A stretch of 32,000 bases of DNA, taken from positions 1 through 32,000 of the forward strand of contig CAZECW010000187.1 of the NCBI GenBank assembly GCA_964510585.1, written 5' to 3'. Below, in pieces: positions 19,720-20,759 of this stretch. The stretch's first letter is position 1; each line of letters starts with the position of its first letter. This DNA is from an uncultured archaeon. GTDB taxonomy: Archaea; Asgardarchaeota; Jordiarchaeia; Jordiarchaeales; Jordiarchaeaceae. The notes under the pieces were generated by a model, which did no database searches, had not been told where the DNA came from, and saw only the letters and a program-made list of their open reading frames with translations. A program made the translations under genes and the position numbers.

Positions 19720-20759
19720 CTAAATCCATGGAATATCCACTTCGTCTAAACGCCATTTTGGGCGCACAAGGCTTTCTTCTACAGTTATAGTTTGCCCACA
19801 CTTGTACGCAAGTATTCCTGTCCAAGCAATCATTGCCCCGTTGTCCCCCGCCAAATCTTGTGGAACAACATAGAAGTTTGCTTCGTGTTCGCTAGAAATT
19901 GCCCTCAACATTTCCTGTAACCTTTTATTTCTCCCAACACCTCCAGTTAATAGAACCTCCTTTTTACCAGTATGTGCAATCGCCCGCTCCGTTACTTCCG
20001 CCAGCATAGAAAAGGCGACTTCCTGTAAACTGTAGCAGAGATCCTCAACTCTGCACTCTTTTATCTTATTTAATGCTGCTGTTAAAAGGCCCGAGAAGGA
20101 TAAATCCATTCCCTTCACTGTGTAAGGTAGAGGAATGTAATTTTTCCCCTCCTTGGAGAGGCTTTCTATTTTCGCTCCACCGGGATGTTGAAGTCCAATT
20201 GCTCTCGCAAATACATCTAACATGTTGCCAATGGCGATGTCTAGAGTTTCCCCGAAGACTCTGTAGCGTCCCTCATCAAAGGCAGTAACCATGGTATTCC
20301 CCCCAGAAACATAAAGGGTAACAGGATCCTTCACATTTGTTGCCAACTTACCTATTTCCACATGAGCTACACAGTGGTTTACGCCCACTAGGGGCACATT
20401 TAATAGGAGTGATAAGGCTCTCGCAGCAGTCGCGGTAGTTCTTAGGCAAGGCCCTTAAGGGAGATAAAGGATAAACCTTTACTTAGCCCCGGGCCTTGAG
20501 AAAAAGCCACCAGATTTATTTCCCTCATGCTTATGTTCGCCTTTTCCAAGGCGCTGCGTATCACTTTTTTAATTACCGCTGCGTGGTGTTGAGCAGCCTC
20601 CCTCGGATGTATTCCTCCCCTAAGAGGAATATACTCATCCCAAACATTTGAGAGAACTACACCCTTATCGTTGACTATGCCGGCTCCGAGTGTATGGGCT
20701 GTGCCTTCCAGTCCCAGACAATTAATGGACTTTTTAAACTCATTATTATCCAAACTCAA
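19720..20759 (-). CDS. kae1: tRNA t6A threonylcarbamoyltransferase Kae1, intron-interrupted: join(complement(20485..20759),complement(19720..20455)), 336 aa after splicing
   Basis: The 5' part ([28 protein letters not shown]) and the 3' part ([40 protein letters not shown]) are in different frames. Removing 29 nt gives 275+736=1011 nt, an open frame reading SQGPGL-GPCLRT. Confidence 0.93.
20456..20484 (-). other. 29-nt bulge-helix-bulge mRNA intron in kae1
   Basis: mRNA: CAAGGCCC GGGG CU^A AGUAAAGG UUUAU CCUUUAUCU CCCU UA^A GGGCCUUG. This gives an 8-bp exon-exon helix, 3-nt bulge, 4-bp central helix (GGGG/CCCU), 3-nt bulge and an intron hairpin; cuts fall after the 2nd bulge nt. Confidence 0.88.

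Follow-up and report, generated by a model that had tools for sequence, protein, structure and literature searches.

A predicted bulge-helix-bulge intron in the kae1 coding sequence of Jordiarchaeia and other Asgard archaea

Described introns of this type and the kae1 case

The kae1 gene is an essential tRNA-modification gene that functions in t6A synthesis. The closest described counterpart of the interruption that we report in this gene is the intron of crenarchaeal cbf5 (Watanabe 2002; Yoshinari 2006; Yokobori 2009, PMC2738675), i.e. a short bulge-helix-bulge (BHB) intron that interrupts a codon belonging to a conserved motif in the gene of an RNA-modification enzyme, is cut between bulge nucleotides 2 and 3 in hosts with a heteromeric EndA, has been gained and lost patchily among relatives, and has confused annotation. 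We observe or predict each of these features for kae1. The two cases differ in the host gene (kae1, t6A synthesis) and the phylum (Asgard); moreover, the kae1 motif is strictly canonical while most crenarchaeal cbf5 motifs have been described as unconventional, and cDNA and in vitro cleavage have demonstrated the splicing of cbf5 whereas that of kae1 is a prediction from the DNA. As of 2020, cbf5 was, besides the Haloferax case described below, the only reported case of a BHB intron in an archaeal mRNA (PMC7714728), and other cases in protein genes were only predicted (PMC2738675); in the literature searched, no archaeal coding sequence other than cbf5 is reported to require BHB splicing.

BHB introns of tRNAs are extremely abundant in Freyr-, Jordi- and Atabeyarchaeia (PMC11291895; bioRxiv 10.64898/2026.10.13.758758), and for the lineage considered here introns are known from 92-95% of the tRNA genes (PMC11291895). 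Archaeal tRNA introns and the kae1 insert share the motif, the length range of 13-32 nt, the presumed enzymes and the lineage (PMC11291895; bioRxiv 10.64898/2026.10.13.758758); introns in protein genes are mentioned in neither of these two papers on Asgard tRNA introns. In kae1, a helix between the exons takes the role that the anticodon stem has in tRNAs, and the substrate is the coding sequence of an mRNA, such that splicing would set the reading frame.

In Haloferax volcanii, the mRNA of HVO_1309 is likewise a substrate of EndA, with a BHB intron in its 5' UTR (Schwarz et al. 2020, PMC7714728). That intron lies in an untranslated leader and interrupts no protein, whereas the kae1 intron lies in the coding sequence. 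In eukaryotes, HAC1/XBP1 mRNAs undergo unconventional cytoplasmic splicing by Ire1 together with a tRNA ligase or RtcB. As we propose for kae1, proteins alone excise a short mRNA intron at paired stem-loops, a tRNA ligase is used and the frame changes; by contrast, the nuclease is Ire1 rather than EndA/TSEN, the splicing is stress-regulated, and homology of the introns is not implied. The role of RtcB in HAC1/XBP1-type splicing is cited in PMC5829648 (ref. 5).

We found no report of a kae1 intron in the literature searched, in which BHB and Kae1 occurred together only in a general tRNA review. The mechanism that we propose is a known one, shared with mRNA introns of the cbf5 type; what is new to that literature is the gene concerned, the lineage and how widely the intron is conserved.

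The interrupted kae1 gene and its predicted splicing

The window, i.e. the whole stretch of 32,000 nucleotides that was analysed, belongs to the GTDB class Jordiarchaeia (Asgard), and these organisms come from hot-spring metagenomes. It is closest to a Ca. Jordarchaeia MAG, with 99% identity, and to a closed Freyarchaeota chromosome, with 85%, in agreement with the Asgard lineage that the first-pass annotation had guessed. On the minus strand, the window has the gene order DUF359, rps24e (21118-21474; PF01282, 2.7e-25), rps27ae (20910-21086; PF01599, 6.3e-19), kae1 and bud32, and from rps24e to bud32 this is the usual archaeal order. The gene for the KEOPS partner Bud32 lies directly 3' of kae1 (19078-19701, minus strand); it is intact (TIGR03724 arch_bud32, E 3.3e-74) and an ORF of its own rather than fused to kae1. 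At the 5' end of kae1, there is no in-frame ATG nearby; the first canonical start is a TTG at 20759, 13 codons before the profile match begins, and the frame is open further upstream, such that the true start codon is uncertain.

The kae1 gene is divided over two exons on the minus strand. Exon 1 (20485-20759) comprises 91 codons and the CU of a split Leu codon, and matches positions 1-78 of the profile TIGR03722 arch_KAE1 (E 1.9e-28). Exon 2 (19720-20455) comprises the last base of the Leu codon and 244 codons, ends with the stop codon at 19720-19722, and matches positions 80-323 (E 1.7e-121). Thus, only the split Leu codon is missing from the profile matches. The 29 nt at 20456-20484 lie between the exons, and the unspliced frame runs into a stop after 105 codons. 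Without these 29 nt, kae1 is a single open frame of 336 aa reading ...FSQGPGLGPCLRTT..., in which the GPGLGPCL loop is restored and the catalytic motifs are intact; the predicted junction of the joined exons is ...CCGGGGCU/AGGGCCUUGC..., in short ...GGGGCU/AGGGCC.... A cut shifted by +1 nt gives the identical protein, while shifts of -1, -2 and +2 nt do not, and therefore the frame alone places the boundary only to within 1 nt.

The insert and its flanks form a strict hBHBh' motif at 20447-20498 (minus strand), as delimited by the fold and by comparison with homologous inserts. An 8-bp outer helix pairs exon with exon (20498-20491 with 20454-20447), and a 4-bp central helix, GGGG/CCCU (20490-20487 with 20461-20458), separates two 3-nt bulges on opposite strands, i.e. 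CUA at 20486-20484 on the 5' side and UAA at 20457-20455 on the 3' side, which is the arrangement that defines a BHB. The flanking helices h and h' are both present and both covary; the helix within the intron consists of an A-U and a G-C pair followed by a 6-bp hairpin. Read from 5' to 3', the intron begins with the last base of the 5' bulge, continues with 22 nt that include the hairpin and then with CCCU of the central helix, and ends with the UA of the 3' bulge. When 76 nt of the RNA strand are folded, the minimum free energy (MFE) structure comprises the helix CAAGGCCC/GGGCCUUG of 8 bp, the helix GGGG/CCCU of 4 bp, the UAA bulge and the intron hairpin, with an energy of -30.1 kcal/mol (z = -3.3; 1 of 200 shuffles was equally stable). 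Its 5' side can be drawn in two ways, either as the 3-nt CUA bulge followed by the A-U and G-C pairs or as a 4x2 internal loop, which the MFE prefers. No Rfam family matched positions 20300-20650 at E up to 1.

The BHB cut rule given for cbf5, i.e. cutting between the second and third bulge nucleotides (PMC2738675), selects one of the two boundaries that are compatible with the frame. The predicted cuts are at 20485/20484 and 20456/20455 (minus strand), each after the second nucleotide of its bulge; they would rebuild the Leu codon from CU and A and give an in-frame message for a conserved Kae1. The first-pass annotation had claimed a split by exactly 29 nt between GPGL and GPCL, a strict hBHBh' motif with precisely this span, cuts that restore the Leu codon and 336 aa, a boundary left free by 1 nt and settled by the BHB rule, and a stop after 105 unspliced codons; the mapped exons, the TIGR03722 matches, the shifted cuts and the fold bear these claims out, with the 5' side of the motif open to two drawings.

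In total, we conclude, with a probability of roughly 0.88, that the kae1 coding sequence is interrupted at 20456-20484 by an archaeal BHB (tRNA-type) intron of 29 nt that would be removed by EndA and RtcB. In the pre-mRNA, the QGP codons of exon 1 would pair with the GPC codons of exon 2 to form the 8-bp helix, and the next four exon bases, GGGG, would pair with CCCU of the intron, leaving two 3-nt bulges on opposite strands. A heteromeric (alpha-beta)2 EndA would then cut each bulge after its second base, and RtcB would ligate the exons, rebuilding the Leu codon CU/A and the GPGLGPCL loop such that the full 336-aa Kae1 could be translated; the excised intron would come free, probably in the form of a small circle. 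The cutting and joining of the kae1 mRNA is the step that we infer.

The genes for these enzymes are present. In the regions of C157:27039-27287 and C126:19921-20181, the genome has genes for two full-length paralogues of EndA, 192 and 198 aa long, that are 31% identical and each have an N- and a C-terminal endonuclease domain; in the alignment, the second paralogue lacks the His of the catalytic triad. There is one RtcB gene. EndA of Asgard and TACK archaea has been described as an (alpha-beta)2 enzyme with a broad-specificity L1 loop (PMC5829648), and two EndA paralogues are present in 44 of 60 Asgard genomes (bioRxiv 10.64898/2026.10.13.758758). As judged from its two sequences, the EndA pair fits a heteromeric (alpha-beta)2 enzyme.

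Conservation of the motif and alternatives to splicing

In a profile search of 400 Asgard genomes, kae1 was split at profile position 80 in four families only, comprising 17 genomes, two of which are closed chromosomes. In the family of the window (f1), the split is present in all five genomes in which kae1 was found (G001 had no kae1 match); it is also present in 5/5 genomes of family f2, which belongs to the same order, in 4/4 genomes of family f3 and in 3/3 genomes of family f32. The f3 genomes include G011 (CP091871.1, assembly GCA_001940665.2), which we take to be the closed Odinarchaeum yellowstonii genome, and the f32 genomes include G310 (GCA_048939465.1). No split at the site was found among 78 kae1 loci from outside the Jordiarchaeia (of 80 fetched; mostly Bathyarchaeia), 9 of the 78 being left out for lack of a match to the search pattern.

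Several other interruptions of kae1 were rejected as introns. The second split in exon 2 of G004 (locus L040, contig C185), a MAG of the same genus, is a scaffolding artefact consisting of a run of N and a duplicate of the 27 codons that flank it. The splits in G018 and G337 are 1-nt frameshifts without an insert, the interruptions in G150 and G154 are in-frame protein insertions, and the splits in G235, G329 and G040 are contig breaks.

The inserts of the 17 genomes are 13, 14, 25, 26, 28, 29, 30 or 32 nt long and fall into all three frame classes; the only in-frame insert, of 30 nt, contains two TAA stops. The homologue in the Freyarchaeia chromosome CP147778 has 28 nt. In all 17, the outer helix can be parsed with 8 bp, the central helix with 4 bp and both bulges with 3 nt, with one mismatch each in four of the motifs (in the central helix in G002, and in the outer helix in G008, G010 and G309). 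As the first-pass annotation had anticipated for a genuine intron, relatives thus carry inserts at the same site in which compensatory changes preserve the BHB geometry. In the alignment of these motifs (A1), 97.9% of the cells are paired compared to 82.2% in shuffles, and the covariation score is 0.492 compared to 0.196, with 0 of 500 shuffles reaching the observed value in either case; because the 17 genomes are related, these shuffle statistics overstate independence and amount effectively to about four families plus the variation within them. In the same alignment, double-sided (compensatory) changes are present in 6 of 14 pairs, and registers that were slid give only 30-62% pairing. The most telling pair joins the wobble position of the first Gly codon of GPG with the wobble position of the post-intron Gly codon, and is seen as G-C, U-A, C-G, A-U, U-G and G-U. 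By this alignment, it is structure rather than sequence that is conserved among the homologous kae1 introns.

Part of the exon-exon helix is obtained for free from the palindromic codons GGNCC...GGNCC, and 99 intron-less kae1 genes were therefore taken as a control. In these genes, one of the two wobble pairs can form in 39% and the other in 33%, i.e. near chance, and all 8 bp are formed in 5%; in the intron-bearing genes, the corresponding values are 94%, 88% and 82%. Pairing of the wobble positions is thus high with the intron and near chance without it, from which we conclude that selection for pairing acts on synonymous exon sites only in genes with the insert.

The same comparison bears on the possibility that kae1 is recoded without splicing, i.e. 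that the ribosome bypasses the insert or shifts frame over it with the hairpin as a stimulator, which we regard as very improbable. A ribosomal hop of 50 nt reportedly occurs in phage T4 gene 60; the gap in kae1 has a stable hairpin, and the unspliced frame soon reaches a stop. Moreover, the early cbf5 cases were first confused with frameshifting (PMC2738675). However, a single fixed frameshift is ruled out by gaps that measure 13-32 nt and represent every frame class, and a hop between matching GGG codons would remove Leu-Gly from the invariant GPGLGPCL. In addition, the feature that is conserved and covaries is the BHB geometry, i.e. the recognition element of EndA and not a bypass signal. 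A programmed frameshift or bypass site was likewise rejected based on the three frame classes and because GPGLGPCL is obtained only by excision at the BHB cuts.

As little credit is due to a Kae1 that is made as two separately translated polypeptides, of 105 aa (N-terminal) and ~225 aa (C-terminal), which would assemble non-covalently. Split genes are known from some small-genome archaea, and the first-pass annotation had expected annotation pipelines to call kae1 a pseudogene; instead, they call exon 2 alone, as a separate "TsaD" protein of 223-248 aa. Against two polypeptides, 19 conserved codons that match the profile from position 80 follow the junction yet precede the first possible start in exon 2, a GTG at 20397, and are therefore readable only once the exons are joined. 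Also, the tail of exon 1 past the junction is unconserved among relatives, the break would lie inside a conserved loop, and the conserved BHB would be left without a role.

In a MAG of 217 contigs, an insert with a length not divisible by three would ordinarily be taken as the mark of a pseudogene or an error. Nevertheless, that kae1 is dead or dying, or that the insert is an assembly or sequencing artefact, has an even slimmer chance than the two preceding readings. Contigs from four public runs and three studies, in which the insert is identical, cross these 29 nt without an indel while differing at other positions: one spans 22.8 kb with 8 differences, and two others come from a ~96% identical relative. 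One variant among the spanning contigs, at 20493, turns a C-G pair in the outer helix into U-G. In runs X12 and X15, which are labelled metatranscriptomic and are probably DNA, contigs of a ~96% identical relative retain the insert, and no joint of the exons was seen, which bears on neither expression nor splicing. The occurrence of inserts in 17 genomes including two closed chromosomes also argues against an artefact.

Moreover, we found no second kae1 in the genome (96% complete, 217 contigs), in which bud32 and sua5 are intact. The first-pass annotation had named raw reads lacking the insert and, together with missing spliced reads, an intact second copy as outcomes that would speak against an intron; the contigs retain the insert, and no second copy was found. 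Between intron-bearing genomes, dN/dS is 0.03-0.14 for exon 1 and exon 2 separately, with dS near 1; by this measure, both exons are under strong purifying selection, which together with the single copy argues against a pseudogene. A database of 5.8 billion proteins contains seven clusters with at least 82% identity, all of which are exon 2 pieces of 223-245 aa, also at odds with an artefact or an isolated dead gene; no full-length close relative of Kae1 was found in this database, a result that is uninformative on splicing. In public metagenome assemblies, we observed further truncated Kae1 proteins (P0008-P0018 and P0097) of 240-253 aa with 65-73% identity, one of them on a 712-kb contig. 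These probably represent further lineages with an interrupted kae1.

That EndA cuts without rejoining, the BHB acting as a cleavage switch that destroys the kae1 mRNA, is just as hard to credit as a dead gene: BHB motifs are also used for pure processing, in rRNA precursors and in the Haloferax 5' UTR (PMC7714728), but the sole kae1 copy would then yield no Kae1 although both exons are strongly selected, and the cut sites restore the frame exactly. Finally, a group I or group II self-splicing intron was rejected because the ribozyme core takes hundreds of nt whereas the inserts have 13-32 nt and no Rfam match, and an intein because 29 nt is not a multiple of 3 and the in-frame 30-nt homologue has two TAA stops.

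Other interrupted genes, origin and meaning

Splicing of kae1 as a BHB intron would have company in the same genome. The cbf5 gene is split by a strict BHB of 31 nt (contig C18, 27688-27718, minus strand; loci L147/L148) within the codon of the catalytic Asp (G/AT), with a 5-bp outer helix, a 4-bp central helix CACU/AGUG and a 7-bp inner helix; the crenarchaeal cbf5 intron, for which splicing was shown by experiment, has the same position (PMC2738675). The pcm gene, for protein-L-isoaspartate methyltransferase, is split by a 32-nt BHB (C187, 67020-67051, plus strand), 35 kb past the end of the window; it has a 9-bp inner helix, and its excision restores QTISAP/HM.

The only copy of rtcB (C58, 3702-5036, plus strand) has a 30-nt in-frame insert with a TGA between LPD and AHQGYGFPIGG (locus L126, ~1548-1640), with a central helix CCCG/CGGG, 3-nt bulges ACA and AAG, and an outer helix of only 2 bp. 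Within the genus, rtcB of four further genomes has a similar interruption with one stop, TGA or TAA; a search of other Asgard families gave no such case. The rtcB mRNA would itself need the ligase for its splicing. Because rtcB is interrupted, splicing of kae1 would need ligase that is already in the cell, and we count this against our explanation.

A genome-wide scan for strict BHB motifs that join ORFs gave 180 matches compared to 174 and 165 in the displaced-partner control, and a stricter version gave 466 compared to 445; because the scan did no better than its control, it cannot count mRNA introns. The kae1, cbf5 and pcm introns are among its matches, and the "mirror" decoy rule of the scan was inflated by low complexity. 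With introns in 92-95% of the tRNA genes of this lineage, the same system is apparently applied to several mRNAs; from these loci, the Jordiarchaeia lineage appears to use its tRNA-splicing system on them.

The Kae1 tree recovers all four families with the intron as monophyletic; the deep branches lack resolution, and the poorly filled row of G019 is misplaced. A single ancient gain followed by retention is possible, and so are repeated gains at a site that was pre-adapted by its palindromic codons. We tentatively consider, as a possible but on balance doubtful scenario, that the kae1 intron goes back to a single gain that preceded the divergence of Jordiarchaeia, Odinarchaeia and one more Asgard family, has been retained, and is part of a genome-wide layer of mRNA splicing by EndA and RtcB that includes cbf5, pcm and rtcB. 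If so, core functions in RNA modification and RNA repair would depend on, and could be tuned by, the capacity for tRNA splicing in archaea that are relatives of eukaryotes.

The four-family comparison can be read as natural mutagenesis of the BHB motif, and coding sites with the palindromic codons GGNCC...GGNCC may be pre-adapted to receive BHB introns. Because kae1 is miscalled as a truncated TsaD in these MAGs, marker-gene and completeness estimates are affected. Altogether, the interrupted kae1, cbf5, pcm and rtcB genes suggest that the tRNA-intron-rich Jordiarchaeia also splice mRNAs routinely, which, if true, would tie t6A synthesis to the tRNA-splicing machinery in a concrete way.
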